64,000 bases of DNA from an uncultured Clostridia bacterium. GTDB taxonomy: Bacteria > Bacillota > Clostridia > UMGS1883. The DNA lies in the NCBI GenBank assembly GCA_947629005.1, contig CANRCD010000007.1, positions 17,661-81,660 on the forward strand, given 5' to 3'. A program made the translations under genes and the position numbers. Positions 19,178 to 58,279 of this stretch are shown in pieces; position 1 is the stretch's first letter, and the number at the start of each line of letters is the position of its first letter. Under the pieces are notes generated by a model, which was not told the origin of the DNA, ran no database searches, and worked only from the letters and a program-made list of their open reading frames with translations.

Positions 19178-19540
19178 ATGAATCTGGAGGAGCAGATTTC
19201 CTCGGTACTGAGCGACCCCGAGGCAATGAGCAAAATATCCTCGATAGTAAGCGCTCTTGGAGGGGGCGGGGCCTCCCCCGCTCCCCAGAGCGCCCCGCAG
19301 GCCCAGCAGCAACCGCAGCAACCGCAGCCCCCAAGCCCGACCCCTCAGCCGCAGCCGACCCTTCCCGCCGGACTGCAAAATCTGAACCTGCCCGACCTCG
19401 GCAATGACAACCGTACCCGCCTTTTGATGGCGGTGAAGCCCTTTCTCAGCGAAAAGCGAGCCCCCTACGTGGACGGCGCGGTGGCCCTGCTGCGCATGAT
19501 GCAGCTCGGCAAGCTGGGCAAGGACATGAAGCTGTTTTAA
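19178..19540 (+). CDS. Hypothetical protein with Pro/Gln linker (clostridial, possibly sporulation-related)
   Basis: LSDPEAMSKI..PQ-rich..RTRLLMAVKPFLS pattern. Confidence 0.65.
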   Translation: MNLEEQISSVLSDPEAMSKISSIVSALGGGGASPAPQSAPQAQQQPQQPQPPSPTPQPQPTLPAGLQNLNLPDLGNDNRTRLLMAVKPFLSEKRAPYVDGAVALLRMMQLGKLGKDMKLF

Positions 19541-19549
19541 AGGCGCGCC

Positions 19550-19765
19550 ATGCGGAGCAGAAGCATGACGCCCTTCCTGCCATCAACGGGGCGCGGCGCG
19601 GCGGGCGGGGCCGCGCAGGAGCCGACGTCCCTGATAAAAAAGATAAGCGAGCTCAAAACCGACGATTACATCCTGCTGGGGATAATAGCCGTGCTGTTTT
19701 TTGAGGGCAGCGACGACTATATCATGATGGCGGCGCTGGGGTATTTGTTTTTAATGGGACTGTAG
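19550..19765 (+). CDS. Small hypothetical membrane protein
   Basis: C-terminal DDYILLGIIAVLFFEG.DD hydrophobic hairpin. Confidence 0.55.
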   Translation: MRSRSMTPFLPSTGRGAAGGAAQEPTSLIKKISELKTDDYILLGIIAVLFFEGSDDYIMMAALGYLFLMGL

Positions 19766-19768
19766 GAA

Positions 19769-19879
19769 CGTAAAAAAACACGCGCAGACCGTTAAAGAGA
19801 TGAAGCCCTCGTTTCAAGGCAATTTCGGGTATTATAAACGGGAATGATATTGAAAATCCGCTCGGCCGAGCGGATTTTT
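19769..19879. repeat. Intergenic repeat element, copy 2, ending in a terminator hairpin just upstream of the phage-like operon
   Basis: CGTAAAAAAACACGCGCAGACCGTTAAAG plus GAAAATCCGCTC-GGCC-GAGCGGATTTTT (19852-19879). Confidence 0.65.
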
Positions 19880-20000
19880 GCCCGTTCTGACGCGATTTTC
19901 TCTGCCGGCCACTGCGCCTCCGCGCTACAGGGCGAGTTTTATTACAGCTTCATTAATTCTTTTTCCCGCAATAATTTTTTGCTCTTTACGCAAAAAATTA

Positions 20001-20029
20001 TTGACACGGGACTTTTGGGGTGGTATATT
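20001..20029 (+). promoter_or_regulatory. sigma-A promoter of the phage-like operon
   Basis: TTGACA (20001-6), 17 bp, TATATT (20024-9) with an extended TG. Confidence 0.8.
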
Positions 20030-20041
20030 ATACCCATAAAG

Positions 20042-20055
20042 CGAACAAATGTTCG
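20042..20055. promoter_or_regulatory. LexA/SOS box (Bacillota Cheo box)
   Basis: CGAACAAATGTTCG fits CGAAC-N4-GTTCG; begins 13 bp after the -10 element. Confidence 0.85.
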
Positions 20056-20103
20056 TATTTCGAGGCTCGGTACACATTTACGAAGGACAAGCACGCGGGA
20101 GGC

Positions 20104-20403
20104 ATGAAAGTGACAAAAAGGAAAAACGAAGGAGCGGTAAAATTCTGCATAGTGTGCGGGAAAAAGATACCCGAGAGCAGCAACCGTCACAAAATATGCG
20201 GGGAACGCTGCCGTCTTAAGCGGCGATACCTTGCGCGGCGCGGTCAGGCCGCGCCATACGAGTACGCGACGGAGCCGCCGATAGCGGCATACTCGCTGGG
20301 AGAGCTTCAGCGTCGGGCGCGCGAGGCCGGACTAAGCTACGGGCAGTACATGAGCAAGCTGCACGCCGGAGGGCTCAGCCTGCACGGGAGGAGCGCGACT
20401 TGA
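20104..20403 (+). CDS. Small Cys4 zinc-finger protein, phage-associated (start may be GTG 20110)
   Basis: CIVC..C...C; C-terminal AREAGLSYGQYM; GGAGG RBS. Confidence 0.65.
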   Translation: MKVTKRKNEGAVKFCIVCGKKIPESSNRHKICGERCRLKRRYLARRGQAAPYEYATEPPIAAYSLGELQRRAREAGLSYGQYMSKLHAGGLSLHGRSAT

Positions 20404-21995
20404 AAAAGCAGGGGCAGCGCAAGCTGAAAGAGCTTATCGAGGGCTATTTTGCCTACTGCGCCGGAGAGCCGCGGCTGGACGCGGACGGCAATCCGCTGCT
20501 TGACAAGAGCGGGGCCGAGATAAGGACGAACGTGCGCCCTCCCACCGTGAGCGGGCTGGCGCTGGCGTTGGGTTTCGACAGCCGCCGCGAACTGACGCGT
20601 TTCTGCGGAAACGCGGCCGAAAATGCCCTTATCGAAAACGCGCTGCTCAGGATAGCCAACTACAACGAGGAAAAGCTCTTTGACAAGGACTGCGCCCGCA
20701 GCGCGATATTCAACCTGTCGAACGGCTGCGGCGAAGATGAAATGGAGAACGCCGCCGAGCTGCGTATTCCAGCCGAACTGCTGTGCGCGGGCTTCATAGA
20801 CCTTTACCGCGACATCCGCGCCGGTAAGCACGCCGAGTACGTGCTAAAGGGCGGGAGAGGAAGCACAAAGTCGTCCTTCGCGGCGTTGGTGACGGTGGAG
20901 CGGCTTTTCAGCCATCCGGACGAGCACGCGCTTGCCATGCGGCAGGTCGGCGCGACGCTGAAAGACAGCGTGTACTCCCAGCTTTGCTGGGCGGCGGCGG
21001 CCCTCGGGGTGGAGGACGAGTTCGAGCGAAAGCAAAGCCCGCTCGAACTTATACGCAAGGCCACGGGCCAGCGGATTTACTTTCGCGGGGCGGACGACCC
21101 CTCGAAGCTGAAATCGCTGGCCCCGCCCTTCGGACACATCGGCACGCTGTGGCTGGAGGAGCTTGACCAGTTCGGCTCCGAGGCGGCGGTGCGCTCGCTG
21201 GAGCAGAGCGTGCTGCGCGGCGGCGACGGAATTGCGATAAAGACCTTCAACCCGCCCCGCTCGCCAGCCGCTTGGGTGAACCGCAGCATGGCCGCGCCCA
21301 AGGCCGGCCGCCTTGTGCATCACAGCACTTACCTTGACGTGCCGCCCGAATGGCTGGGCGGGCGGTTCATCGACGAGGCCGAACACCTTAAGACCGCCGA
21401 CCCGAAGTCCTACGCCCACGAATATTTGGGCGAGTGCAACGGCGACGGCGGGCCGGTGTTTGAAAACCTGACGCTGCGCGAGATTACGGACGACGAAATA
21501 TCGCGCTTCGACAGAACGCTCTGCGGCATAGACTGGGGTTGGTATCCCGACCCCTTCCGCTTTTGCAGGGTGAGCTACGTGGCGGCGGAAAGGCGGCTGT
21601 TCATCTATGACGAGATAAGCGGAAACAAGCTGAGCAACGCGAAAATAGCCAAGCTGCTGCGGGAAAAAGGCGTCGGCTACGGCGACAGGATAACCGCCGA
21701 CAGCGGCGGCGAGGGGCCGAAAAGCATAGCCGACCTAAAGACGGCGGGCTTCCTTATAAGAGGGGCCGCGAAGGGGCCGGGCAGCGTGGAATATTCGATG
21801 AAGTGGCTGTGCGCGCTGAGCGAGATAGTCATTGACCCAACGCGCTGCCCCTGCGCCGCAAAGGAGTTCCTTGAATACGAATACGAAAAGGGGCGCGGCG
21901 GCGAAGTGATAGGCGGCTACCCTGACCGTGACAACCACTCCATCGACGCGGCGCGGTACGCTACGGAGGAAATCTGGCGAAAGAGAGGGGTTTAA
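20400..21995 (+). CDS. Terminase: N-terminal gp3-type small-subunit domain fused to a PBSX-family large subunit
   Basis: IEGYFAYC..RPPTVSGLALALGFDSR (TerS-like); GGRGSTKS Walker A, WLEE Walker B, GIDWG and DNHSIDAARY nuclease motifs. Confidence 0.9.
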   Translation: MKKQGQRKLKELIEGYFAYCAGEPRLDADGNPLLDKSGAEIRTNVRPPTVSGLALALGFDSRRELTRFCGNAAENALIENALLRIANYNEEKLFDKDCARSAIFNLSNGCGEDEMENAAELRIPAELLCAGFIDLYRDIRAGKHAEYVLKGGRGSTKSSFAALVTVERLFSHPDEHALAMRQVGATLKDSVYSQLCWAAAALGVEDEFERKQSPLELIRKATGQRIYFRGADDPSKLKSLAPPFGHIGTLWLEELDQFGSEAAVRSLEQSVLRGGDGIAIKTFNPPRSPAAWVNRSMAAPKAGRLVHHSTYLDVPPEWLGGRFIDEAEHLKTADPKSYAHEYLGECNGDGGPVFENLTLREITDDEISRFDRTLCGIDWGWYPDPFRFCRVSYVAAERRLFIYDEISGNKLSNAKIAKLLREKGVGYGDRITADSGGEGPKSIADLKTAGFLIRGAAKGPGSVEYSMKWLCALSEIVIDPTRCPCAAKEFLEYEYEKGRGGEVIGGYPDRDNHSIDAARYATEEIWRKRGV

Positions 21996-22005
21996 CATTA
22001 AAGCT

Positions 22006-23328
22006 ATGTTTTGGAAAGGAAGGTTGAGGAAGATGTTTACGCCCATATCGAGAGAGGAGGAGATCAGGCGGGCATTCGGCGTCAAAACCGGTGAAAACCG
22101 CATGGACGCCGCCCGCAGACGCTGGCGCGGCCTTTACGAGGGAGGCGGACTGCGACTTGCGGCGGCGGTGGCGGGCGAGCTGGCGCGGCTGACGGTGATG
22201 GAGCTGAAATTTAAGGTGGAAGGCGGCGCGAGGGCCGCGTTCCTCAACGGCTGCCTTGACAGGCTCCGCGCGGGGCTGAGGCAGGACATGGAAAACGCCG
22301 CCGCCGACGGCTGCATAGTCTTTCGCCCTTACCCGAACGGGGATACGTTAAGAGTCGAGGCTGTGCGCTCGGACTGCTTTATTCCTATATCATGGGAAAA
22401 CGGCGTCTGCACGGAAGCGGTGTTCGTGCAGGAGCTGAAAAAGGAGGACGAGCTGTTTACGCGGCTGGAGCATCACTCGCTTGAAAACGGCCGCTACAGG
22501 ATAGAAAACGCGGCTTACCGCAGCAAAGGCGGCGGCCTCGGCGCTCGCTGCTCCCTTGCCGACGCGGACGAGTGGAAGGATTTGGCGGAGAGCGTAGTTA
22601 TCGAAAACGTCAAAAGGCCGCTGTTCGGCCTGTTCAAAACGCCAATCGCCAACACAATCGACCCCGATTCGCCGCTCGGAGTTTCGGTGTTCGCGCGGGC
22701 CGAGGAGCAGATAGCGCAGGCGGACGAGCTTTACGAAAATCTGCTGTGGGAATTCAGAAGCGGCAAACGCCGCCTTTACGTGGACGTGACGGCCTTCGAG
22801 CGAGGGGCCGACGGAAAGCCCCGCCTGCCCGACACGGAGCTTTACCGCGCGATAGACCTCGGCGACGGCGGACTGTTCAACGAGTGGTCGCCCGAATTCC
22901 GTCACGAGGCGCTGCTCTCCGGACTGAACGAGGTGTTAAGGCGCATTGAGTTCAACTGCTCGCTGGCATACGGAACCCTTTCGGAGCCGAGCTACGTGGA
23001 AAAGACCGCCGAGGAGGTGCGCGCCGGCAGACAGCGCAGCTACTGCTTCGTCAGCGAGCTGCAAAGTCAGCTACGCACGGCGCTGACCGACCTCGTTTAC
23101 GCAATGGACGTGTGGTGCGACGTATGCTCGCTTGCGCCGGCAGGCAAGTACGAATGCTCGTTCGAGTTCGACGACTCGATTGCCGCTGACCGCAGAGCCG
23201 AATACGAGGAAAAGCTGCGGCTGACGGAGCTGGGCGTAATGCTGCCGTGGGAGCTGAGGGCGTGGTATCTGGGCGAGAGCGAGGAAACTGCCAAGGCGGC
23301 GCTGAGCCGCGCGGAGGCCGGAGCATGA
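22006..23328 (+). CDS. Portal protein (A118/SPP1 gp6-like); start may be 22033
   Basis: Follows terminase; FTRLEHH, PIANTIDPDSPLGVSVFARA, LRRIEFNCSLAYGTLS and FDDSI motifs. Confidence 0.88.
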   Translation: MFWKGRLRKMFTPISREEEIRRAFGVKTGENRMDAARRRWRGLYEGGGLRLAAAVAGELARLTVMELKFKVEGGARAAFLNGCLDRLRAGLRQDMENAAADGCIVFRPYPNGDTLRVEAVRSDCFIPISWENGVCTEAVFVQELKKEDELFTRLEHHSLENGRYRIENAAYRSKGGGLGARCSLADADEWKDLAESVVIENVKRPLFGLFKTPIANTIDPDSPLGVSVFARAEEQIAQADELYENLLWEFRSGKRRLYVDVTAFERGADGKPRLPDTELYRAIDLGDGGLFNEWSPEFRHEALLSGLNEVLRRIEFNCSLAYGTLSEPSYVEKTAEEVRAGRQRSYCFVSELQSQLRTALTDLVYAMDVWCDVCSLAPAGKYECSFEFDDSIAADRRAEYEEKLRLTELGVMLPWELRAWYLGESEETAKAALSRAEAGA

Positions 23329-23639
23329 AACTGAGGCACATAAGGGTGTTCAGCCTTAACAAAGAGGCCGGAGGGTACGCATATAACGACTACCGCGGTA
23401 CGGCGGAACTGGAGGACGGCGACGAGACCGACAAATCGGGCCGCCGCAGACGCTGCTTAGGCAGCGTGAGGCTGATGACGCGCGAGGACATACGCGCTGT
23501 GCCAGGGGATTACGTGAGCCTCGGCTTGGCGGAGGAGCCCGACAAGGGGCGCGACTTTTACATAACCGCCGTGAAGGACAACCGCAGGGGCAACCTCCCC
23601 CACTGGAGGCTTTTGGTCGGAAGGAGGGGACTGGGCTGA
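23325..23639 (+). CDS. Putative head-closure/stopper protein
   Basis: ATGA overlap with portal; PGDYV..ITAVKDNRRG.LPHW. Confidence 0.6.
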   Translation: MKLRHIRVFSLNKEAGGYAYNDYRGTAELEDGDETDKSGRRRRCLGSVRLMTREDIRAVPGDYVSLGLAEEPDKGRDFYITAVKDNRRGNLPHWRLLVGRRGLG

Positions 23640-23974
23640 AGCTGACGCTGAAAAACGCGGACGAAATACTACGCGAGCACGGCCTTGAAAACGGCGGCGC
23701 GGTGCAGCGTACTGTTGACGAGGCCGTTATAAGCCTGTGCGAGCCGTACGTGCCGGTGGACACGGGAGCCCTCAAGGCCAGCCCATACACATACTCGCCG
23801 CCAGGCGAGGGAAGGGTGGTTTACGGAGTGGCTTACGCAAGGGAGCAGTACCTTAACAACAAGGGCGACGGCGGACTGCGCGGCGCAAGGTGGTTCGACC
23901 GCATGAAAGCCGACCGCCTTGGCGACATTGTGGAGCGGGCGGCCTCTGCCGCAGGCGGAAAAGCGGAATATTAA
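23636..23974 (+). CDS. Neck/tail-completion protein (Minor_capsid_2-like), probable CTG start
   Basis: PYVPVDTGAL..YAREQY..RGARWFDRM; AAGGAGG RBS upstream of CTG 23636. Confidence 0.7.
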   Translation: MKLTLKNADEILREHGLENGGAVQRTVDEAVISLCEPYVPVDTGALKASPYTYSPPGEGRVVYGVAYAREQYLNNKGDGGLRGARWFDRMKADRLGDIVERAASAAGGKAEY

Positions 23975-23989
23975 AGAAAGGAAAATGAA

Positions 23990-24307
23990 ATGAAGTTCGT
24001 TTTTGAGGATTTTTCCCGCGAGGTGGACAACACCGAGGTATCGGTGGCAAAAAAGTACGAAAAATGCCTTGAGGACTTTTACGTCCGAGTGGCGAAAATC
24101 GACATGAAGGGTACGGCCAGCGGCATATACGGCGAGATAGTGGACGCGGGCATGGCCATGATGGAGGACTTCTTCGGCAAGGGCAGCGCGGAGGAGATGT
24201 TTAAGGAGAGCCGCAGCGTGAGAAAGGTCATGACGGCGGTATGCGGCCTCAACAAATACATGAACGACATAGGCTCCGTCATTGAGGAAATGAAGGGCCT
24301 GTCGTGA
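23990..24307 (+). CDS. Putative tail assembly chaperone
   Basis: 105 aa, helical, EDFFGKGSAEEMF; directly precedes the Gp15-like gene. Confidence 0.55.
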   Translation: MKFVFEDFSREVDNTEVSVAKKYEKCLEDFYVRVAKIDMKGTASGIYGEIVDAGMAMMEDFFGKGSAEEMFKESRSVRKVMTAVCGLNKYMNDIGSVIEEMKGLS

Positions 24308-24840
24308 GCATAATTACGGGTGCGCTCCCCGACAGCGTTGAGTTTGAAGGCAAAAGCTACGCGGTCCACACGGATTTCCGCCGCTGGATAGCCTTCTTCG
24401 AGGCCGCCGGAGAGAGGGATTTGGTGGGTATGCTGAAGGTTTACCGCGAACTGCCGCCCTCGGCGGATACGGCCGTCGCGCTGGCGTTAGGCTTCGGAAA
24501 CGGAGCGGCTCTGCCTTACGGGGGCGGAGGGAAAAGAGCCGTGCTGGACTTTGAGACCGACGCCGCGCTGATTTACGCCGGATTCATGGGGGAATACGGG
24601 ATAGACCTATGCGAGGCCAGTCTGCACTGGTACAAGTTCTGCGCGCTGCTTGCGGGACTGGGACAGGACAGACGTATCTCGCAAATCATGGAGCTTCGCG
24701 CCGAGGACGCGGGGCTTGTGCAGGACAAGGCCCGTAGGCGCAGACTGCGGGAGCTTCAGCGAAACTACGCCATACCTGACAGAAGGTCGGCGCAGGAAAA
24801 GGACGGCGGACTCGTTCGCTGTCTGGGCGAATTTTATTGA
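24304..24840 (+). CDS. Gp15-family (A118) tail assembly protein
   Basis: TDFRRWI, LDFETDAALIYAGF..EYGIDL..LHWYKF. Confidence 0.8.
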   Translation: MSIITGALPDSVEFEGKSYAVHTDFRRWIAFFEAAGERDLVGMLKVYRELPPSADTAVALALGFGNGAALPYGGGGKRAVLDFETDAALIYAGFMGEYGIDLCEASLHWYKFCALLAGLGQDRRISQIMELRAEDAGLVQDKARRRRLRELQRNYAIPDRRSAQEKDGGLVRCLGEFY

Positions 24841-24855
24841 GAAAGGGGAAGGGAA

Positions 24856-25230
24856 ATGACGACGGAGATTTCCGAGGAGGAAAAGACGCTCGGGGCCGAG
24901 GAAGAGCTTGAGGCTCTCAGGGCGGAAAACGAGGCCCTGCGCGCCCGCGTGGCGGAGCTTGAGGCCGAGCTCGACGCGGCGAGGCTCGATTTCGCGGTGG
25001 AAAACGAGCTGCGCGGCTTTGGGGCAAAGAGCTCCAAGGCGGTGCGCGCGCTGCTCGACATGGGCGCAGTGGAGCTCGCCGACGGCGAGGCCAAAGGCCT
25101 TAAGGAGCAGCTTGAAAAGCTGCGCGAGGAGCACGGCTACCTATTCGCGGGCAAAACGCCCGCGGTGGCGGCTCCCACAGGAAAAAGCCGCGGAGGCGGC
25201 TTCGGCTTCAAATTTACGGGCGTCAGATAG
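24856..25230 (+). CDS. Capsid scaffolding protein (GP20-like)
   Basis: Acidic coiled coil; GAKSSKAVRALLD..GLKEQLEKL..YLF; directly before the capsid gene. Confidence 0.8.
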   Translation: MTTEISEEEKTLGAEEELEALRAENEALRARVAELEAELDAARLDFAVENELRGFGAKSSKAVRALLDMGAVELADGEAKGLKEQLEKLREEHGYLFAGKTPAVAAPTGKSRGGGFGFKFTGVR

Positions 25231-25258
25231 ACGCATACAAAAGGAAGGAGAATGACTA

Positions 25259-26137
25259 ATGGCAACCTTGAATTACGCGACTGAATACGCGGGCGGCCTC
25301 GCGCAGGCCTATCCTTACGTGCTGAACTTCGGCGCGCTTTACGCCTGCGAAAACGACAGCCGCTACCGCTGGGTGAACGCTAAAACCATCGAGATACCCA
25401 GCATTACCACCACCGGCCGCGTGGACGGCGACCGCGATACCGTGGAGCAGGCCAAGCGCAACTACGACAACGCTTGGGAAATGAAAACTCTCTCCCATCA
25501 CCGCAAATGGAGCACGCTCGTGCACCCTATGGACATCGACGAAACCAACATGGCGGCCTCGATAGGCAATATCACGCAGGTATACAACGAGGAGCAGAAG
25601 TTCCCCGAAATGGACGCCTACACCGTATCTGAGATATACAGCCAGTGGACGACCGCGGGGCAGAGCCCCGACACCACCGTGCTGACCGCCGATAACGTGC
25701 TTTCGGTATTCGACGCCATGATGGAGGCTATGGACGAGGCACGCGTACCCGCAAAGGGCAGAATACTTTACGTGACGCCCGCCGTTAAGACGCTCATCAA
25801 GAACGCCACGGCCCGCACCGTGAACAACGGCGAAAGCGGAATAGAACGCTCGGTGGCCGACATTGACAGCGTGGAGATCATCGCGGTGCCGAAGGACCTG
25901 ATGAAAACCAAGTACGACTTTGACGAGGGCTGGGAGGTAAACGAGGCCGCAAAGCAGATAAATATGCTGCTCATCCACCCCAGCGCCGTCATTACGCCCG
26001 AAAAGTACACCTTTGCCCGTCTTGACGAGCCCAGCGCCGGCAGCGAAGGCAAGTATGTGTACTACGAGGAGAGCTACGACGGCGTGTTCATCCTGAACAA
26101 GCGCGTGGGCGGTATAGCCGTAAACGCGGAGGCTTAG
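25259..26137 (+). CDS. Major capsid protein
   Basis: LNYATEY, AKTIEIP, FPEMDAY, RILYVTP and YDGVFIL motifs; strong AAGGAAGGAG RBS. Confidence 0.85.
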   Translation: MATLNYATEYAGGLAQAYPYVLNFGALYACENDSRYRWVNAKTIEIPSITTTGRVDGDRDTVEQAKRNYDNAWEMKTLSHHRKWSTLVHPMDIDETNMAASIGNITQVYNEEQKFPEMDAYTVSEIYSQWTTAGQSPDTTVLTADNVLSVFDAMMEAMDEARVPAKGRILYVTPAVKTLIKNATARTVNNGESGIERSVADIDSVEIIAVPKDLMKTKYDFDEGWEVNEAAKQINMLLIHPSAVITPEKYTFARLDEPSAGSEGKYVYYEESYDGVFILNKRVGGIAVNAEA

Positions 26138-26139
26138 GC

Positions 26140-26475
26140 ATGAGCTACGAGGAATACCTGTCCGTCTGCTCCGGCCAAGAGCCCATTCCGGAGGACGAGT
26201 TCGCCTTTTACGACAAAAAGGCCGGAGCCCTTTTGAGCCTCTTTACCTTCGGCAGAAGCGACGACTCGGACGACGAGGCCGTGAAATACGCCCGAGCGGA
26301 AATTGCCGGATATATCTTTGAAAACGGCGGCCGGAGGGGTATTGTCAGCGAAAGCAACGACGGCCTCAGCGTCAGCTACGACGGCAGCGATGACGCCGGA
26401 GCTTACGCCATCGCAAAGCAGTGGCTGGGCGGCGGAGGTATGATGTACCAAGGAGTTGAGCGCTGTGATAATTGA
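26140..26475 (+). CDS. Head-tail adaptor
   Basis: SYEEY..TFGR..VKYA..SESNDGLSVSY..MYQGV. Confidence 0.7.
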   Translation: MSYEEYLSVCSGQEPIPEDEFAFYDKKAGALLSLFTFGRSDDSDDEAVKYARAEIAGYIFENGGRRGIVSESNDGLSVSYDGSDDAGAYAIAKQWLGGGGMMYQGVERCDN

Positions 26476-26875
26476 CGGCGTTAAGCGGTTTTTCGAGGGC
26501 TGCCCCCTGCTCGGGGGAGCGGAGGTAAACGTGAATTACCTCGGCAGGGACGGCGGCGAGTACAGCATTGACAGCCTCCCCTCCTCCCCGCTGGTGAAGC
26601 GGTACGTGGACGGCGGAGAGGTGCGCCGCTTCGACTTTACCTTCGCGGCAAGGGAGTTCCACGACGCCGACTGCCGCCAGAACACCGATTCGGCCTTGGC
26701 GTGCGAAAGGCTTATCGAATGGATAGAGGCCGAGGCCGAGGCGGGCAGGCTGCCGGAGCTTGACGGCGGGCTGGAGGCGCTGGGCCTTGAGGCGTTGAGC
26801 GGCGGATACGTCAGTTCCTCGAACGACGCTACGGCGAGATTTCAAATTCAATGCAGACTTACATACAGAAAGTGA
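26465..26875 (+). CDS. Tail terminator protein
   Basis: GTG after AGGAG; VNYLG..EYSID..KRYVDG..ARFQIQCRLTY; precedes tail tube. Confidence 0.7.
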   Translation: MIIDGVKRFFEGCPLLGGAEVNVNYLGRDGGEYSIDSLPSSPLVKRYVDGGEVRRFDFTFAAREFHDADCRQNTDSALACERLIEWIEAEAEAGRLPELDGGLEALGLEALSGGYVSSSNDATARFQIQCRLTYRK

Positions 26876-26883
26876 GGAGAAAA

Positions 26884-27345
26884 ATGGCTACTTCCAAAAG
26901 ATGCGACAAGGTGGCCTTTATGGGCGTGAGCGGCAAGTTCCACAGAATGACGAATTTCACGGAGATAACCACAAACAAAAATCCCCGCGAGTACAACCGT
27001 CAGTACGTGGACGAGGAGTTTGAACGGGCCGACGTGGTGGGCTACAACCCCTCCGTCAGCTATGCCTTCGACTACGACAAGGAAAACCCCGTGCACGGCC
27101 TGATAAAGGACATCGTTGACAAGGAGCTCGTCGGCGACGAGGCCGTGGTGGAGATAATAATGGTGGACATCGACGCCCCAGACGGGGAAAACAACGGCAT
27201 AAGCCGCCGCTGGAGCGTCATTCCCGACGCCGAGGGCGCAAGCCTTGACGCCTACACCTACAGCGGAAGCTTCAGGGCCAACGGTGAAAAGACCGCCGTT
27301 AAGGTGACTTCCACCGACGGCTGGCAAACCGTTACCAAGGGCTGA
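26884..27345 (+). CDS. Major tail tube protein
   Basis: KNPREYNRQYVDE..DVVGYNPSVSYAFD; GAGGAG RBS. Confidence 0.75.
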   Translation: MATSKRCDKVAFMGVSGKFHRMTNFTEITTNKNPREYNRQYVDEEFERADVVGYNPSVSYAFDYDKENPVHGLIKDIVDKELVGDEAVVEIIMVDIDAPDGENNGISRRWSVIPDAEGASLDAYTYSGSFRANGEKTAVKVTSTDGWQTVTKG

Positions 27346-27365
27346 GAGACCGAGGAGGTGGAAGC

Positions 27366-29111
27366 GTGGCGGCCGACGGAAGCATAGTTATTGAAACCCG
27401 CCTCGACACCGACGGCGTTGAACGGGGTCTGAGCGAGATAGAAAAGGCCGTGGAGAGCAGGCTGGAGGCCGTGGAGGACGGCGCTAAAGGCCTGATGGAC
27501 GCCGTCAGAAACGCTATCGGCTCGGCTGATTTGTCAGAGAGCGCCGCGGCGCTTATCGCCTCCGCCGCAGACGCAATAACGGGCGGAGCGGGGAGCTTAT
27601 TCTCCGCAGCCCTCGGGGCCGCCGCCGAGGCGGCTTCGGGTCTGCTTGGCGGAGCGGGACAGTTCAGCTCGGGCGGGGCCGCGCTCTCCTCTGCGGCGGC
27701 CTCGGGCATAAACGGAGCGGCGGGGGCGGTGGCCTCCGCCGCCAGAAGCTCGGCCGCGGGCGGGGCCACGGCGGCGGCCTCAGTTTCGGGGCAGTTCTCG
27801 TCGGTGGGCGCAAACCTGATGAGCGCACTCCGCAGCGGTATCGCGGCGGGCGCTTCGGCGCTGTACGCCAAGGCCGCGGCCATTGCCGCCGGAGTGGTGG
27901 CGAGGATAAAAGGCGTTTTCGGTATTCACTCGCCATCAAAGGTATTCCGCGACGAAATCGGCAAAATGCTGATGATGGGCCTTTCCGAAGGTATATTGCA
28001 GAATAAGGAGGCCGTGCTCGCGGCCTGCGAGGATCTGAGCGCGGATATGCTCGACTCCGAGAAAAAGTACCTTGCCGAGCGGGAACGCGTCGAGGCCGAG
28101 CAGGACGAGGCCGACGAAGCCCGCCGCGTGCGGGAATACGAAAAACGGCTGGCCTCGGCCAAGGACGAGACGGAGATGGAAGAAATAATCGCCGAAGAGC
28201 GGCTGAGGCTCAAAAAAAGGGCCGACGACGCTTATCTCGCCCAGCTCAAGGAAAGCTCCGAGCGGGAGCGCGAAATCGTGGATCAATTAAAGGACGACAT
28301 CACCGCCGTATACAAGGACATTGCCGAGTACGCGGAAAACGGCCTTGAGCCTATAGTAAAGAGCCGCGACAAGCTGAGCGAACGGCTGAAAAAATACGCC
28401 GCCGAAAGCTTTGGCTACGAGGAGCGCGAGTACAGCATAAGCCTTCGCGAGGAGACGTCAATCGGGGCGGTGAGACGCCGCGATGCGACAATGCCGGTTT
28501 ATCTGCTCTCCGACCAGAGGGGAACCATCGAAACGCTTCGCGGCTACAGCGAGGCCCTAAGCTCGCTTTCAAAAAGGCTGAAGGAGAGCTTTTCGCCGGA
28601 AACGGCTCGCGACTTTATGCACGCGCTGGCCGAACTGGACGTGGAGGAAGCCTCGACCTTCGCACAGACGCTGCTGACCGCCGACGACCGTATGTTCGGC
28701 GATTATGTGGAGCGCTGGACCGAAAAGAACGAGCTGGCCGAGGCCATTGCCAGCCAGCTTTACAGCGATGAATTCACCGAGGCGGTTGACGACTGCACCG
28801 ATTATATGAAATCGGCGCTGGAGGCAGTGGGGCTTGAGGCTCCGGAGGGCTTTTTTGCAAGCGGAGCGGCCAGCGCGCGGGAATTTGGCAGGGGCTTTAG
28901 CGAAGGGCTGAACAAGGCGCTGGAGGACGCGCGCGGACTTATCGAAAGCTTCGGCGGCTTCGGCGCGGCTTCGGCGGGCTCGGGCGGCGTGGTGAACAAC
29001 ACAAATTACTACAACAGCTACTCCATAAGCGGCACAAAGAGCACCGCTGCGGAAAGCATCCGCGCCGTTGAGGCCGCGGCTACAATGAACAGGTACAGGG
29101 GGCTTGGCTGA
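27366..29111 (+). CDS. Tail tape measure protein (short, 581 aa)
   Basis: MAADGSIVIETRLD start; Ala/Gly-rich; FGIHSPSKVFRDEIG motif. Confidence 0.85.
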   Translation: MAADGSIVIETRLDTDGVERGLSEIEKAVESRLEAVEDGAKGLMDAVRNAIGSADLSESAAALIASAADAITGGAGSLFSAALGAAAEAASGLLGGAGQFSSGGAALSSAAASGINGAAGAVASAARSSAAGGATAAASVSGQFSSVGANLMSALRSGIAAGASALYAKAAAIAAGVVARIKGVFGIHSPSKVFRDEIGKMLMMGLSEGILQNKEAVLAACEDLSADMLDSEKKYLAERERVEAEQDEADEARRVREYEKRLASAKDETEMEEIIAEERLRLKKRADDAYLAQLKESSEREREIVDQLKDDITAVYKDIAEYAENGLEPIVKSRDKLSERLKKYAAESFGYEEREYSISLREETSIGAVRRRDATMPVYLLSDQRGTIETLRGYSEALSSLSKRLKESFSPETARDFMHALAELDVEEASTFAQTLLTADDRMFGDYVERWTEKNELAEAIASQLYSDEFTEAVDDCTDYMKSALEAVGLEAPEGFFASGAASAREFGRGFSEGLNKALEDARGLIESFGGFGAASAGSGGVVNNTNYYNSYSISGTKSTAAESIRAVEAAATMNRYRGLG

Positions 29112-29950
29112 TGGAAATGATTTTTGAAAACGCCGCCGGCAGCGTGCGGCTGGACGGCGGCAGGGGCGGCGCTCCCTTCCGCATACGCGCGGCGGAGGGG
29201 CTGGGCTACATGAGCATGACGGCCGCCACCGCCGAATATCCCCGCAGAGCGGGCCAGAAAACCATAACACGCACCGCCGGCGCGAGAATCATCACGCTGA
29301 GCTTTGACGACGCGGCCGCCGGCGCCAACACCGAGGGCGTTCTGGCAAGAATATTCCACGGAGAGGGGCGGCTGACCGTCGTCAGCGGAGCAAAGCGCGT
29401 ACACGCCGACTGCTACGCCAGCGCAATGAGCGCGCAGCAGCGCTTCGGCACGGACTTCGGACGCTATACGGTGCAGCTCACCTGCGATTATCCCTACTTC
29501 AAGGGCGAGACGCGGCTCGCGCCGCTGTTTGGGCGCGAAAAGCTGATAAAGGCGGGCTTCTCGCTGCCGTCAATACTGTCGCGCCGCACGGAGGGGAACA
29601 AAGTATCCGTTGGCGGCGACGCGGACATATACCCGCGGCTGCTTCTGGGAAATCTGTCCTCGGCGGAGGAATTTACCCTCGAGGCGCTGAACGAAACCAC
29701 CGGCGCGGCGCTCCGTCTCAATCTGCCCGCCGGAAGCTACCCGTCGATTGAGGCGGACCTTGCCGAGGGCAGCATAAGCTGCGGCGGAAAGGATTTGACG
29801 CGCTATCTTGACGAGGATATCTACATGAGCGATTTCCTGCTCAGCCGAGGCGAAAACTCCCTGAAAATCAAGGCCGAAGGGCTTACAGGCGAGGCTTGGG
29901 CAACGGTGGAATTTGAGGAGGAGTACGTTTCGGCATTGGAGGAAGCATGA
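29111..29950 (+). CDS. Distal tail (Dit)-like protein
   Basis: Follows tape measure; EGLG..RIITL..QLTCDYPYF..FLLSRGENSL. Confidence 0.7.
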   Translation: MEMIFENAAGSVRLDGGRGGAPFRIRAAEGLGYMSMTAATAEYPRRAGQKTITRTAGARIITLSFDDAAAGANTEGVLARIFHGEGRLTVVSGAKRVHADCYASAMSAQQRFGTDFGRYTVQLTCDYPYFKGETRLAPLFGREKLIKAGFSLPSILSRRTEGNKVSVGGDADIYPRLLLGNLSSAEEFTLEALNETTGAALRLNLPAGSYPSIEADLAEGSISCGGKDLTRYLDEDIYMSDFLLSRGENSLKIKAEGLTGEAWATVEFEEEYVSALEEA

Positions 29951-30909
29951 GAGAGGAAATCGTTTTTTATGACTACGAGTTCAACCCGCTGGGCCGCACA
30001 GTGAACATTACGGACATATACCACAAGGAGCTTTACAACGGTATCGGCTCCTTCGAGGCGGGACTCACCGCCGATGACCCAGCGGCAAGGCTGCTGCTGG
30101 AACGCGACTTCACCGTGGCCGTGTGGGAGAACCGTCAGGCGATAATCACCTCCACCCAGACGGACAACAGCACGGGGGCGTTCCGCGTTTACGGGCGCAC
30201 GCCCAACTGGCTGCTCTCGAAGCGGGCCTGCCCCAACTTCGGCCACAGAAAAGGCACGCCCTTTGAGCTGGCCCACGCGTTGGTGGAAGAGGTTTGGGGG
30301 GACGCTATTGCGGTGGGCCCCGGCAGGGACATAACCGCCGCGACAACCACCTTCTGGCGAAACGTCTACAACCCGCTGAGCGAGGTGGTGGCCGACTGCC
30401 TTGACCGAGCCGGAGGCGGCCACCGCGTGGTTTTTGACACAAAAAAGAAGGAGTGGCGTTTTGAGACTTGGCTCGGCGGCGAAAGCCCCTGCCTTTTCAG
30501 CGAGGACAGGCGCAGCATAAGCACCCAAAGCCTGCGCCGAAGCGTGCTGGACTACTTCAACGGCGGCTTCTACTGCAAGGACGACGAGGACGGCACTTGG
30601 GTGGAAATACCCTCGGATAAAGAGGGAATATACCGATGGACTACCCGATTGGACGGCTCGGGCGAGGACGCGGCCAGAAGCGACCTTATGCGGCGGCGCA
30701 TTGAGGACGAGGGCGATTTTGACGTCCTCGGAGAACCGGACGGAACCTACGCGCTGGGCGATACGGTGAAGGCGCAGCTCTGCTGCGGAAGCTTCAGGAA
30801 AACGCGTGAAATGCGCGTCGCAGCCATCGAGCGTTGGTCCGAACGCGGGAGCAGCGGCGAAAGACCGCTGCTGAAATCTATATACGATAACGAGGGGGCC
30901 AAAGAATGA
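29947..30909 (+). CDS. Tail tip/baseplate hub protein (Gp37/Tal-like)
   Basis: VFYDYEFN..YNGIGSFE..YALGDTV; position after Dit. Confidence 0.65.
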   Translation: MREEIVFYDYEFNPLGRTVNITDIYHKELYNGIGSFEAGLTADDPAARLLLERDFTVAVWENRQAIITSTQTDNSTGAFRVYGRTPNWLLSKRACPNFGHRKGTPFELAHALVEEVWGDAIAVGPGRDITAATTTFWRNVYNPLSEVVADCLDRAGGGHRVVFDTKKKEWRFETWLGGESPCLFSEDRRSISTQSLRRSVLDYFNGGFYCKDDEDGTWVEIPSDKEGIYRWTTRLDGSGEDAARSDLMRRRIEDEGDFDVLGEPDGTYALGDTVKAQLCCGSFRKTREMRVAAIERWSERGSSGERPLLKSIYDNEGAKE

Positions 30910-31754
30910 AATACTATTTCAGCGATAACCGCAGCTACGGCGCGGACGACCTAAAGGCCGCGCTGGGCGTGCTGGTGGCCGCCGGAGGCATAACCGTAAA
31001 TCTGAGCGACTCAGAGAGCTACGACCCGTCGAAGCTGAACGGCCTTATCGGCAGCGCGGTTGCGGCGGGAGTGGTGCCGGAAAACAACGCCAGTTTAAAG
31101 CTTATTAAGAGCGGCGACGGCTACAGCGTAATGCCGGGCAGAGCCGTGTTCTCGGACGGCGGGATAGCCGTGTTGGACGCGAGCGCGCCCGTTGACGCAA
31201 AACCCGGACAGTATGTGTATCTGGCATACAGCGCGGCGTTGGACGACGTTTACTTTATTGCGGAGGACACGGAGCAGACCGAACACGGCGGAGTGCTGCT
31301 GGTGCCGCTGGGCCGCGTGAAACCCGACGGCAGTGTGGAAAACCGCCGCGTTTACGCCCGCGGAAGGGTGCCGGCGCTGGCCTCGGCCAACTGGACGAAC
31401 CTCCGAACGGTGGAGCTTTCGGTGGACGTGTCATCGCTGGGTGCAAACGGGGGATATGTCGAGGCGACGCACGAGATTGACGGCGACATGAATTTCATGC
31501 TGGTGGACGACCACACGCTGATAAGCGTAATGCACACCGGCGCGGAAACGGCCTATCACACGGTAATGCGCTCGACCTCACGCGATACCAGCAACAACAG
31601 AGACTATCTGGGCATAACGCAGACCGTCAACGGCACTGTTCGCGCCACGCTTATCAGCCACGGCAACGGCTATATACGGATGAGGTACTATGTGCCCGGG
31701 CCGGTGAAAACCAAGACGCTGACCTATACCGCTCTGATAGGCATAACCGCATGA
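30906..31754 (+). CDS. Baseplate/receptor-binding protein, last gene of the operon
   Basis: YFSDNRSYGADDL..VMPGRAVFSDG N-terminus; beta-rich C-terminus. Confidence 0.55.
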   Translation: MKYYFSDNRSYGADDLKAALGVLVAAGGITVNLSDSESYDPSKLNGLIGSAVAAGVVPENNASLKLIKSGDGYSVMPGRAVFSDGGIAVLDASAPVDAKPGQYVYLAYSAALDDVYFIAEDTEQTEHGGVLLVPLGRVKPDGSVENRRVYARGRVPALASANWTNLRTVELSVDVSSLGANGGYVEATHEIDGDMNFMLVDDHTLISVMHTGAETAYHTVMRSTSRDTSNNRDYLGITQTVNGTVRATLISHGNGYIRMRYYVPGPVKTKTLTYTALIGITA

Positions 31755-31802
31755 GTGCAGCCTTGAGCATAGCCTTGGTTTAAGGGGGCCGAATCAATGA
31801 GT

Positions 31803-31830
31803 AAAACCCGCTCTGCCGAGCGGGTTTTTT
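31803..31830. terminator. Bidirectional terminator ending the phage-like operon and comF
   Basis: AAAACCCGCTC-TGCC-GAGCGGGTTTTTT. Confidence 0.85.
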
Positions 31831-31871: not shown

Positions 31872-32636
31872 TCACCTTGGCGTCAACAGCCCTTCCGTAA
31901 AGGCCGTCTCCACGGAAGGGAACGGCGTCTTGTTTATATCCGTGCCGGAATAACCAAGCCCCGCTCTGGCGACGGCCGCGCCGTACACGCTGCCGCAGCC
32001 CATGCGGCGCAGCAGAGTGCAGCACCATTTCATGGTAGCGCCGGTAGTGATAACGTCGTCCACCACGAGCCATGTCCCGCTCAGCCTTTTCTTAGCGGCG
32101 GGATGGTAAAGCCTTCGGGCATTAGTAAGGCGGCGACTGCGGCTTAGGCCCACCTGATCCTCGCCGCCCTCTATACGCCTGAGAACTCTTCTCACGGGCA
32201 CGTCAAGCAAGCGGCCAAGCTCGCAGGCGATTAGCCTCGCATGATTGTAGCCGCGCTCGCGGCCCGCCTTTCGGCTCTGCGGCACGTATGTAATGCAGTC
32301 GGGCCGAAAGCCGCCCATCTCGTCCGCTATGGCGCGGGCGAAGCAGCGGAAGGCCGCGGGGCGGGAGTAAAACTTCATATTTAAGATTGCGCGGCGGACG
32401 CCGTCGCGATAAGAGAAGGGCACAAAGCACTTTTCATACGGTACGCCGCCGCGGCAGTCGGCACAGTTTGGCATGGCAAACTCGCCGCCCATGGGCGCGG
32501 CGCAGATAGAACATCTTGGGCCGGTGATTTTTGGGAGCCCGTCCTCACAGACAGGACAAAAACCATCCGCGCTCTCCGCCAAGGCGCCACATATAGGGCA
32601 CTTGGGCGGAAACAGCAGCGAAAGCAGCCCCTTCAT
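31872..32636 (-). CDS. comF: ComF family protein (double zinc ribbon + phosphoribosyltransferase domain)
   Basis: LFPPKCPIC..CPVC..CSIC..CADC; RGYNHA; LVVDDVITTGAT. Confidence 0.92.
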   Translation of the reverse strand: MKGLLSLLFPPKCPICGALAESADGFCPVCEDGLPKITGPRCSICAAPMGGEFAMPNCADCRGGVPYEKCFVPFSYRDGVRRAILNMKFYSRPAAFRCFARAIADEMGGFRPDCITYVPQSRKAGRERGYNHARLIACELGRLLDVPVRRVLRRIEGGEDQVGLSRSRRLTNARRLYHPAAKKRLSGTWLVVDDVITTGATMKWCCTLLRRMGCGSVYGAAVARAGLGYSGTDINKTPFPSVETAFTEGLLTPR

Positions 32637-32893
32637 CCCTGAGCCGTCCTGCCCGAGCGCTTCTTAGCGCGGGCGGGGGACTGGCCGGCGTCTCCCTCGC
32701 GGACTATGATATCGCTTAGCTCACAGCCCAGCGCCTCGCAAATTTTGTCCAGATGGTCGAGGTTCACCCTCTCGCACATTTCATGATACATATCGTTTAT
32801 TGTATTCGCCCTTATGCCGGTCTTGCGGGCCAAGTCGGCCTGCGTCCAGCGCTTTTCTCCAAGCCTTGTGGAAAGCATTATCCTTATCGACAT
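32633..32893 (-). CDS. Cro/C1-type (XRE) HTH transcriptional regulator
   Basis: WTQADLARKTGIRANTI..LDKICEALGCELSDII; overlaps comF by 4 nt. Confidence 0.88.
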   Translation of the reverse strand: MSIRIMLSTRLGEKRWTQADLARKTGIRANTINDMYHEMCERVNLDHLDKICEALGCELSDIIVREGDAGQSPARAKKRSGRTAQG

Positions 32894-38756: not shown

Positions 38757-39266
38757 TCAATATTCAATGCCCAAGCGGGCCTTTACTCCTTTTTTAAACG
38801 GGTGCCTCACAGCATTAATTTCGCTTATATAGTCCGCTGCGTCGAGGAACTTTTGCACTGGGCGGCGGCCCGTGAGCACAAGCTCGATTTTGCCGGCGTT
38901 TTCCAGCACAATCCCGTCAGCGGTATCGCGGTCGAGAAGGCCGTGGCGGTAGGCGGAATTGAACTCGTCTAAAATCAGCATATCAAGCGCGGGCAAAAGC
39001 CCCGCAGCCCCGCAAAGGAGGGCGTTATGCCGGTCGGTTATCTCCGCCCTGACGGCCGCCGTCATAGCCGCCGGAAAGCCGTAGTCACGTTCGAGACGGC
39101 TGAGGGTTATTTCCGGAATTTTGGCCAGAGCCGCCAGCTCCGACGTGGGCCTCCCCTTCATTAGCTGGACAATGTGCACTCTCATGCCCGCGCCTGCGGC
39201 CCGCAGGGCCAGCCCGAGGGCGGCGGTGGTTTTGCCCTTACCGTCGCCGCAATATATTTGCAGCAT
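38757..39266 (-). CDS. cobO: Cob(I)yrinic acid a,c-diamide adenosyltransferase
   Basis: YCGDGKGKTTAALG, LILDE, LVLTGR and GIEY motifs. Confidence 0.92.
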   Translation of the reverse strand: MLQIYCGDGKGKTTAALGLALRAAGAGMRVHIVQLMKGRPTSELAALAKIPEITLSRLERDYGFPAAMTAAVRAEITDRHNALLCGAAGLLPALDMLILDEFNSAYRHGLLDRDTADGIVLENAGKIELVLTGRRPVQKFLDAADYISEINAVRHPFKKGVKARLGIEY

Positions 39267-40726: not shown

Positions 40727-41740
40727 CTATTTTTCCTCCGAAAGGATTTCTTTTATTGCGCCGACGAGCGTTTCGTTTTCCGCCCTCAGCCGAACGGCGG
40801 CGCGGTAAAACTGCGGCCCGAGGCCGTAGTAGTCGGAGCAGCAGCGTATGGATATCCTTCGGCGGAGCAGCGCGGCTCTTAACCCCTCGGGGCCTTTGAA
40901 AAGCAGATAATTCGCCTCGGACGGGAACGTCTTTAACCCAAGTCCGGCCAAAGAAGCGGAAAGGAATTCCCTCTCCCGCCTTACAAACCGCCGCGTTCTC
41001 GGGATAAAGGTCTTTTCCTTTAACGCCGCCAATCCGGCGAGCTGCGCCGGAGCAGACACGCTCCAGCAGGGGCCGTAAGCGGCGATTTTTTCCGCCAGAG
41101 AGGCGTCCTCGCAGATCAGATAGCCCAGCCGAAGTCCGGCCATGGCGTAAATTTTGGTAAATGCCTTGAGCGCAAACGGCGGCCGCGGAATGTCCGCCCG
41201 CGCCCGCGCAAAATCCGCAAAGCATTGGTCGAGTATGAGGGCCGCCCCTTTCTCTCTGCATTTTGCGATTACTTTTCCCAGAAGCGCTCCGTCTATAAGT
41301 CCGCCGTCGGGGTTGTTCGGGCTGGCAAGTATCACCGCGCCGCGAGCGGGTATGCGCTCCGTAATGCCTTCGTCAAGCCGGAAATCGTTTTCCGCCGAAA
41401 GATAAAACCGCTCCACCTTAGAACCCGCCTCGAGCATGGCTTTTTCGTATTCGGAAAAAGCCGGCGCCGTAACAAGGGCCTTTTGGGGTGAAAGGACGTG
41501 GGCCAGTCTGTATATCAGGTCGGAGGCCCCGTTCCCGCAGACAATGTTTTCGGGAGCCACACCCTCCCTTTCGGCCAAGGCGCGGCGCAGAGCGCGGCAC
41601 TTCGGGTCGGGATATCTTTCGAAGCTCCGCGCGCCCGCCCTGAGAGCGGACCGAACGCTCGCAGGCATACCGAGAGGGTTTATATTTGCGGAAAAATCCA
41701 GCTCAACATCCACGGAATAAACGTCCCCGCCGTGAGTCAC
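40727..41740 (-). CDS. cobD: Threonine-phosphate decarboxylase
   Basis: HGGD..DFSANINPLG, YPDP, AFTKIYAMAGLRLGY. Confidence 0.9.
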   Translation of the reverse strand: MTHGGDVYSVDVELDFSANINPLGMPASVRSALRAGARSFERYPDPKCRALRRALAEREGVAPENIVCGNGASDLIYRLAHVLSPQKALVTAPAFSEYEKAMLEAGSKVERFYLSAENDFRLDEGITERIPARGAVILASPNNPDGGLIDGALLGKVIAKCREKGAALILDQCFADFARARADIPRPPFALKAFTKIYAMAGLRLGYLICEDASLAEKIAAYGPCWSVSAPAQLAGLAALKEKTFIPRTRRFVRREREFLSASLAGLGLKTFPSEANYLLFKGPEGLRAALLRRRISIRCCSDYYGLGPQFYRAAVRLRAENETLVGAIKEILSEEK

Positions 41741-43244: not shown

Positions 43245-43248
43245 AATA

Positions 43249-52747: not shown

Positions 52748-52751
52748 AATG

Positions 52752-53937: not shown

Positions 53938-53940
53938 TTT

Positions 53941-58150: not shown

Positions 58151-58166
58151 GCCGTCGCCTCCAAAC

Positions 58167-58200: not shown

Positions 58201-58279
58201 CAAAAACAGACGTGCACTTATGCACGTTGAGCGTACTGCCAATTACTCGTGGCATTGGAGCCGAAGCTCCCGTACCGGC

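Follow-up and report, generated by a model that had tools for sequence, protein, structure and literature searches.

Packaging of bacterial DNA in a GTA-like manner was recently reported for gut bacteria of the families Ruminococcaceae, Oscillospiraceae and Christensenellaceae, and as common in the first two (Borodovich et al. 2026, PMC12946183). According to the main text of that study, the gene transfer agent (GTA) of Faecalibacterium prausnitzii, FpGTA, is encoded by two operons lying about 125 kb apart, the first with ten genes, including terS, terL, portal, scaffold and capsid genes, and the second coding for baseplate, fibre, receptor-binding protein, holin and endolysin. FpGTA was described there as podovirus-like, with heads of about 40 nm holding 8.4-8.9 kb of DNA, and was called the second such Gram-positive system after PBSX; the terms "LexA", "siphovirus" and "tape measure" are absent from that main text (PMC12946183). 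Here we describe a cluster of phage-type particle genes (operon 1) in a 64,000-nucleotide stretch of DNA, referred to below as the window, which spans positions 17,661 to 81,660 of contig CANRCD010000007.1 (GenBank assembly GCA_947629005.1) from an uncultured Clostridia bacterium. The window is a part of contig 7 of a 2.04-Mb metagenome-assembled genome (MAG; labelled G000 below) that is 97% complete. In our judgement the cluster probably represents a domesticated, non-replicating siphovirus-particle system (a GTA-like "viriform"), which would have been fixed before the species of its genus split and wired into the SOS response of the host. As such it is a strong candidate for a gene transfer agent or a killer particle.

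Like FpGTA, as the latter is presented in the main text of its description, the cluster occurs in Gram-positive gut Clostridia, is near-ubiquitous in one genus, lacks replication and lysogeny genes, and is divided over two unlinked operons, one for the head and packaging and the other for the fibre, holin and endolysin. In contrast to the podovirus-like FpGTA, the cluster has a LexA box and a fused TerS-TerL, and its 16 genes are of the siphovirus type, among them those for the tail tube, the tape measure, Dit and the hub; the two were set apart by their descriptions, in so far as the main text gives them, and not by protein comparison. PBSX of Bacillus subtilis, as far as the consulted part of the literature describes it, resembles what is proposed for the cluster: it is a defective prophage in the chromosome of a Firmicute, DNA damage induces it, its particles take up host DNA and are set free by lysis, and it cannot propagate. 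The tail of PBSX is contractile, the element brings an Xre repressor and an Xpf sigma factor of its own, and the lysis genes are part of it. The cluster differs in its non-contractile tail, in the predicted action of LexA at the structural promoter and in having lysis encoded elsewhere; no sheath or sigma-factor family was matched among the 16 open reading frames (ORFs) in Pfam or PHROGs.

The RcGTA of Rhodobacter capsulatus has a small head with about 4 kb of DNA. In the available portion of one study RcGTA is described as having a multi-locus "genome", whose recognition loci undergo exchange more frequently than its core (PMC5026251), and in that of another LexA was reported to act on it indirectly, through CckA (PMC6363796). 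As far as these partial accounts go, RcGTA shares with our system a head-tail cluster with separate recognition and lysis loci, vertical inheritance and control by host regulators, but it is alphaproteobacterial and controlled by CtrA, GafA and quorum sensing, whereas the cluster has a LexA operator at the promoter itself. A LexA box directly at the promoter is also a feature of colicin operons, which couple a producer-lethal export product to lysis; colicins are single plasmid-borne proteins, and unlike the cluster they involve no phage particle. No siphovirus-type or LexA-box GTA-like cluster of Clostridia was found in the literature, where FpGTA alone turned up; the supplements of PMC12946183 may list further loci. 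The cluster would be a second, structurally different and independently domesticated candidate next to FpGTA, with an evolutionary signature of unusual clarity. It appears to stand apart through its direct connection to the SOS response, the division into two operons and clearly derived changes.

Operon 1 consists of 16 plus-strand ORFs between 20104 and 31754, with intergenic gaps of -20 to +62 nt, framed by one promoter and one terminator (Table 1), and this tight packing is as had been stated in the preliminary description of the sequence, which was made without database searches. The ORF products were named by Pfam and PHROGs profile searches, which recovered TerL, portal, scaffold, capsid, adaptor, tail completion, tape measure, Dit and hub. 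The gene content proposed earlier thus stood from the terminase to the hub, the Dit by a weak match and the tube by position, but the "tip" (g16) is without a family. No significant family was obtained in Pfam or PHROGs for g01, g04 and g16, and in NCBIfam there was no match for these three or for the fibre of operon 2. The earlier statement that no integrase, switch, replication or lysis gene lies inside the operon was confirmed as well, since integrase, repressor, replication, holin and lysin families had no match among the 16 ORFs in Pfam or PHROGs. Residues 4-99 of g02 correspond to a gp3-like TerS domain (GP3_package, 3.8e-6; phrog_606), and the Walker A motif GGRGS(T/A)KS was retained in all seven TerL sequences of the genus. 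Judged from its position before the tape measure gene, g12 is probably the major tail (tube) protein, and g06 is probably the tail assembly chaperone partner. The capsid protein (g09) had no sequence relative in the PDB.

The genus was sampled by 11 species genomes, labelled G000 to G010, and the cluster was found in ten of them, in three of these incompletely assembled. Searches with the capsid and TerL detected it in nine species; in the tenth, G007 (86% complete), a DNA search yielded a 1.75-kb contig with portal, g04, g05, g06 and g07 in the same order. Five species have contigs that span the entire cluster, and all of these carry 16/16 genes in identical order with full-length matches, while in three further species every assembled gene keeps the order of the window. 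Stops within the matches were confined to over-extended N-termini, and host genes showed the same.

Trees were built from 15 concatenated cluster proteins and from five host proteins (pgsA, rimO, recX, hemN and lepA); they had five of six internal splits in common, the sole conflict being the placement of G002 and G006. The host data did not reject the cluster topology in the approximately unbiased (AU) test (p-AU 0.075); the groups of G002 and G006 for these tests were chosen after the trees had been seen. Within the same species pairs, cluster and host genes have equal synonymous divergence (dS), with 0.30-1.02 for cluster genes and 0.47-0.67 for host genes between G000 and G005, and 0.09-0.84 and 0.21-1.33, respectively, between G009 and G010. 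The ratio of nonsynonymous to synonymous divergence (dN/dS) was 0.03-0.41 across all 16 genes in four species pairs, the highest values (0.25-0.41) belonging to g04 and those of g01 being 0.09-0.16. Protein identity to the window copy ranged from 37.5 to 86%, the lowest value being that of one scaffold match, and was 82-96% for the sister species; for the five host proteins it was 50-92% and 90-98%, respectively. The capsid is 83-96% identical within the genus. The shared splits, the parity in dS and the low dN/dS together suggest that the cluster is as old as the genus and has been maintained in it.

Temperate phages of Firmicutes of the A118-like and phiC2/CDMH1 types appear to be the source of the parts, as they share the Gp15, Minor_capsid_2 and scaffold families with the cluster, and the capsid is 64% identical to those of the Clostridioides difficile phages phiC2, CDMH1, phiMMP01/03 and phiCDKH02. 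These phages are complete, at 44-56 kb, with a canonical gene order and a separate terS, whereas the cluster holds particle genes only, rearranged and co-diverging with the host. Outside the genus the comparison covered 73 loci from GTDB species, the best 80 of 404 capsid relatives in IMG/VR and the best 80 of 450 capsid relatives on metagenome contigs. The canonical order in relatives is terL, portal, scaffold, capsid, adaptor, Minor_capsid_2, tail completion, tube, Gp15 and tape measure; in the genus, Minor_capsid_2 and the DUF6673-Gp15 pair are instead placed between the portal region and the scaffold gene. This scrambled order was seen in 7/7 loci of the genus but in none of the 26 informative GTDB loci (47 of the 73 being uninformative) and in none of the 11 informative loci among the 80 from IMG/VR. 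Furthermore, terS and terL form a single open frame in seven species of the genus (5/5 loci in the locus comparison), whereas in relatives the terL match starts at about residue 120-126, terL is unfused in 19/19 GTDB and 41/41 IMG/VR loci, and terS, where matched, has a frame of its own. Both the order and the fusion appear to be derived, and among the relatives examined they were seen in this genus only.

The highest capsid identity outside the genus was 69% in GTDB genomes, 67% in IMG/VR, 68% on metagenome contigs and 64.5% in isolated phages, the nearest of which are the C. difficile phages phiCDKH02, CDMH1 and phiC2, with genomes of 44-56 kb. No copy of the cluster was present among the best 80 capsid relatives of IMG/VR or the best 80 of the metagenome contigs. 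In one of the relatives, the locus of Clostridium celatum DSM 1785, the TerL homologue is in two pieces (query residues 121-436 and 440-530) that lie about 900 nt apart in different frames, which suggests an insertion or intron in the terL of that prophage.

The operon 1 promoter, TTGAC(A/T)-17-TAnnAT with a conserved spacer, was present in all seven species for which upstream sequence is available, and in the same seven a box GAACA(A/G/T)ATGTT(C/T) lies 12-14 nt downstream of the -10 element. LexA is predicted from this operator sequence to bind at operon 1. Exact CGAACNNNNGTTCG sites number two in the window (0.08 expected); the other one, at 17144, was treated as chance because it lies within the malic-enzyme gene and has a G+C-rich spacer. 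The G000 genome has one lexA and one recA, and five exact CGAACNNNNGTTCG sites (2.2 expected), and like boxes were found upstream of lexA (three), recA, uvrB and the TIGR03916/TIGR03915 repair pair. As the box is shared with so few sites of the genome (lexA, recA, uvrB, TIGR03916), the cluster would be a member of a very small SOS regulon. No box of this type was found in any of the 73 GTDB loci; two of the 80 IMG/VR loci have one, both times away from any promoter.

A further SOS box, on contig 8 of G000, precedes a minus-strand operon (operon 2) for a fibre-like protein, a holin and an endolysin (Table 1). Its promoter (TTTACA, spacer ...ACTTTTCGGATGG, TAATAT) is a near copy of that of operon 1, spacer included, and when the 39-nt promoter motif was searched in the 2.04 Mb with up to three mismatches, only the two operon loci and one site with three mismatches were returned. 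The sister promoter stands ahead of the fibre gene in all eight species that have this gene. The fibre was found in eight of the ten cluster-bearing species and not in G008, the sole species without the cluster. It occurs together with holin and lysin in G004, G005, G006 and G009, with lysin in G002 and G010, and alone in G003; it was not found in G001, G007 and G008. In every species in which both operons were found they lie on different contigs, and from the contig geometry of G000 they are at least 60.8 kb apart, as against the 44-56 kb genomes of related phages. All eight species share a conserved fibre N-terminus of approximately 135 residues, while the remainder of the protein is unrelated even between G000 and G005; in the comparable part dN/dS was 0.17-0.27, indicating purifying selection.

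The first gene of operon 1, g01, codes for a small zinc-ribbon protein with a conserved LSYGQY in its C-terminal part. In the ESM Atlas its matches were confined to viral clusters of hypothetical zinc-finger proteins, and a profile search of the PDB returned nothing beyond weak matches to bL20 (E 0.008); we consider it a candidate regulator or packaging accessory. A g01 homologue with 59% identity was also observed in G008 (contig 11, 3295-6344), where a DUF6291-like gene and an unnamed 150-aa ORF come before it and a larger gene after it. By eye this looks like an ordinary prophage, and may be the setting in which g01, and the DUF6291 remnant in operon 2, ordinarily occur in phages.

Table 1. 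Features of operon 1 (window coordinates) and of operon 2 (contig 8 of G000)
Feature	Coordinates	Strand	Match (score) or remark
Operon 1 promoter	20001..20029	+	TTGACA, 17-nt spacer ending TG, TATATT; 11/12 matches
LexA (SOS) box	20042..20055	+	CGAACAAATGTTCG, 12 nt downstream of -10; sequence match
g01, zinc-ribbon protein, 99 aa	20104..20403	+	C-x2-C...C-x3-C; weak DUF2116
g02, TerS-TerL fusion	20400..21995	+	Terminase_3 (1.8e-38), ATPase and nuclease
g03, portal	22006..23328	+	phrog_533 (1.6e-102)
g04, small protein	23325..23639	+	weak DUF6751 match
g05, Minor_capsid_2-type head-completion protein	23702..23974	+	Pfam/PHROGs; displaced from canonical place after capsid/adaptor genes
g06, DUF6673/phrog_4450 protein	23990..24307	+	displaced
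g07, Phage_Gp15 (A118 gp15 family)	24304..24840	+	1e-28; displaced
g08, scaffolding protein	24856..25230	+	PF06810 (6e-23)
g09, major capsid protein	25259..26137	+	phrog_422 (7.6e-104)
g10, head-tail adaptor	26140..26475	+	phrog_541 (1e-14)
g11, tail completion protein	26456..26875	+	phrog_3266 (7.5e-34)
g12, putative major tail (tube) protein	26884..27345	+	phrog_3099 (4.4e-34), no named function
g13, tape measure protein, 581 aa	27366..29111	+	several tape measure PHROGs (2e-23 and weaker)
g14, distal tail protein (Dit)	29111..29950	+	weak: phrog_33 (8.8e-5), SPP1_Dit (0.006)
g15, tail hub/minor tail protein	29947..30909	+	Sipho_Gp37 N-terminal part, PF14594 (4.4e-10)
g16, last tail gene ("tip")	30906..31754	+	no family; conserved in 7 species
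Intrinsic terminator	31803..31828	+	11-bp stem
Operon 2 fibre-like protein, 523 aa		-	repeat-rich, no family
Operon 2 holin		-	Phage_holin_4_1, PF05105
Operon 2 endolysin		-	Amidase_2, PG_binding_1 and SLH
Operon 2 DUF6291/DnaB_2 remnant		-	at operon end

On the basis of these observations the following course of events is proposed. In the undamaged cell, LexA bound to the box 12-14 nt after the -10 element of a strong sigma-A promoter would keep operon 1 off, and upon DNA damage the RecA-driven self-cleavage of LexA would allow its transcription. Operon 1 would then supply the procapsid, the portal, the TerS-TerL fusion terminase, the connectors and a non-contractile tail of about 90 nm, while operon 2 would add a fibre, conserved at its N-terminal anchor and hypervariable where it binds the receptor, together with a holin and an SLH-anchored amidase endolysin by which the particles might be released. 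The LexA box of operon 2 in G000 and G005 may allow direct induction there; the remaining six species may require a product of operon 1 for it, with g01 as a candidate. Such a two-step cascade would let operon 1, g01 included, turn on the distant operon 2 through the shared promoter. The terminase would pack cellular DNA into the heads, and the two loci, lying as far apart as they do, would not both fit into one head of related-phage size. The particles would finally bind related cells via the fibre and then either deliver DNA, as a GTA does, or act in a PBSX-like manner.

Sequence alone does not decide between these two benefits, gene exchange as in a GTA and killing of the PBSX type. A killer would be the same domesticated, SOS-induced particle, kept for damaging related competitors, with the DNA filling only completing assembly. 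We regard this as somewhat unlikely, although the evidence for domestication and SOS control fits it equally well and even the closest species differ widely in the receptor-binding end of the fibre, a hypervariability that would be expected of a weapon in an arms race. The main text of PMC12946183 leaves the same question open for FpGTA, and PBSX is described as a tailocin without DNA injection. However, hypervariable host-recognition loci were reported for RcGTA too, in the part of PMC5026251 that was available, and neither a contractile sheath nor another known killing module is present in the cluster. Moreover, purifying selection on the terminase and portal is as strong as on the tail genes, which argues that filling with DNA is part of the selected function. 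The more far-reaching claim that this is the first siphovirus-type GTA of gut Clostridia described at the gene level, independent of FpGTA, repressed by LexA, operating as a two-step cascade and led by the terminase fusion to non-specific packaging, can be put forward as a tentative possibility.

It might also be argued that the cluster is a defective selfish element, either a satellite or what is left of a prophage. It would preferentially package its own operon, in the way of lateral transduction and for instance from a pac site within the cluster, and would pass horizontally between the species of the genus with or without a helper. Its differing chromosomal position among species, the retained DNA-binding domain of TerS and the signal of recent exchange at operon 2 would be in keeping with this, as would a head of ancestral size (that of 44-56 kb phages), which has room for the 11.8-kb operon. 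Such an element appears improbable to us, given that the cluster matches the host in dS and in five of six tree splits, that its borders are without integrase, attachment (att) repeat or tRNA, and that in all species it is flanked by host genes with homologues in G000. In addition, the fibre and lysis genes lie on another contig wherever both loci were found, and no copy was seen among the best 80 capsid relatives each of IMG/VR and the metagenome contigs. That the cluster is simply an inert prophage relic whose decay has not yet begun is very improbable: while it is without lysogeny, replication and lysis genes, as relics are, and was not found in one species (G008), all 16 genes are intact in the five species with a complete cluster at 37.5-86% protein identity, dN/dS stays at 0.03-0.41 with dS reaching >1, and promoter and operator are kept in 7/7 species.

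Several points weigh against our preferred reading of a domesticated, SOS-controlled particle system. All the evidence is sequence inference on MAGs, so that the system is known here from its genes alone. Capsid, TerL and DNA queries all failed to detect the cluster in G008 (91% complete), and the cluster data reject the pairing of G002 with G006 seen in the host tree (p-AU 0.0019), a group that was likewise chosen after the trees had been seen. The chromosomal position of the cluster varies between species: the rpsL side is common to G000 and G002 only, G009 and G010 share the upstream flank and G001 and G004 the downstream flank, and the flanks in the seven other species are host genes that are located elsewhere in G000. 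These shifts fit genome rearrangement along the phylogeny, and some past movement is possible.

Further reservations concern the second operon and the head. The LexA box at operon 2 was present in only two of eight species (G000 and G005). In these two, the first 851 nt of operon 2, comprising the promoter, the LexA box and about the first 590 nt of the fibre gene (contig 8 of G000, at about 29.8-30.6 kb, and contig 34 of G005), are 99.5% identical, as against 81.5% in the adjoining holin and lysin region, the genome-wide dS between the two being about 0.5. The stretch may reflect either a recent exchange at the receptor-binding locus or an artefact of MAG binning or assembly. Finally, the capsid family is typical of 44-56 kb phages, so the sequence offers no hint of a small head of the GTA type, and a head as large as in those phages could hold the entire 11.8-kb operon 1.

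Set against the definitions of known element classes, the cluster is best placed with the GTA-like and PBSX-like elements. In common with GTAs it has phage-derived head, packaging and tail genes, no lysogeny or replication genes, vertical inheritance and, at the sequence level, a host operator (LexA). F-type tailocins are defined by tail genes only, whereas the cluster also has capsid, portal and terminase genes, on which purifying selection acts. Phage-inducible chromosomal islands and capsid-forming satellites carry an integrase and replication or primase genes, depend on a helper and have no tail genes, whereas the cluster has no integrase or replication gene and a full tail module. A functional temperate prophage is defined by integrase, repressor/Cro, replication and lysis modules contiguous with the structural genes, and no such modules were found here.

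The host belongs to an uncultured lineage of Clostridia/Oscillospiraceae MAGs with about 55% G+C, and its related genomes come from uncultured Clostridia/Oscillospiraceae of the guts of rabbit and other animals; it is not a Clostridium, contrary to the "clostridium" of the preliminary description. The ordinary chromosomal neighbours mentioned there were found on both sides in the form of housekeeping genes, fusA-rpsG-rpsL-malic enzyme-coaX-phosphoesterase on one flank and comF-HTH-pgsA-rimO-recX-hemN-lepA on the other, and the host-like codon style judged by eye was borne out by a third-position G+C content of 0.70-0.79 in cluster genes and 0.64-0.77 in neighbouring host genes. The idea that the comF/pgsA/rimO locus would be conserved had to be abandoned, as the cluster is not there in other species and flanks are common to close relatives only. 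By comparison, vertical inheritance was upheld by the occurrence in 10/11 species, the near-congruent trees, the parity in dS and the low dN/dS of all 16 genes, and lysis functions were indeed located elsewhere, in the unlinked holin-endolysin operon with its SOS box in G000. A near-identical complete prophage, which would have made the operon a recent deletion relic, was not present in the three collections searched, since capsids outside the genus are at most 69% identical.

No att-type direct repeats were found flanking the cluster, and no tRNA adjoins it, the sole tRNA of the window being at 38520. The two flanking hairpins at 19856-19882 and 31803-31828 were considered as an att site and ruled out, as both belong to a genome-wide motif, the bidirectional terminator hairpin AAAA(T/C)CCGCTC-loop-GAGCGG(A/G)TTTT, which gave 25 strand-hits at about 13 sites in G000 (up to three mismatches). 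Downstream of the cluster, an HTH_26 gene (32633-32893) was matched in G005 only, beside pgsA/rimO, and had no match in the cluster flanks of the seven other species with flanking sequence. Directly upstream, at 19178-19765, are two small plus-strand ORFs of 120 and 71 aa, one with a Gln/Pro-rich low-complexity stretch; they had no Pfam or PHROG family and no match beside the cluster in other species. Elsewhere in the window, a long minus-strand run from 38757 to 58000, starting with cobO- and cobQ-type genes, is ordinary chromosome unrelated to the cluster, and the G+C content is 0.48 at 57000-61000 compared with about 0.55-0.62 in the rest.

Further endolysin copies were noted in G000 on contig 21 (1657-2544) and contig 10 (44262-45122), one of them 91% identical to the operon 2 lysin and one about 45-50%, and a 3-kb contig (contig 28, 1-2888) holds a 962-aa ORF, open at the contig end, that appears tape-measure-like by eye. 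The extra lysin copies and this ORF suggest that G000 carries fragments of at least one other, unrelated prophage; the capsid and TerL of other prophage fragments in G000 do not match those of the cluster. Ten public sequencing runs contain part of the window as contigs. One RNA library gave contigs of 228-351 nt at a depth of 2.3-3.7 for the cluster and host flanks alike, which is not indicative of transcription or induction.

In the passages of PMC12946183 considered here, FpGTA is the only gene system tied to GTA-like packaging in the gut. If our reading is correct, elements such as the one described here could account for the GTA-like packaging that has been reported from Oscillospiraceae and Christensenellaceae, where these passages name no gene cluster. 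The fused TerS-TerL and the scrambled gene order may be seen as marks of a phage module once the host, and not the virus, is the unit under selection. The switch would be an explicit one, in which the structural promoter has a LexA box and the lysis operon a twin of that promoter, and, if the system is active, DNA damage in the gut, such as that caused by antibiotics, bile or inflammation, would lead to lysis and to the release of DNA-filled particles across a commensal genus.

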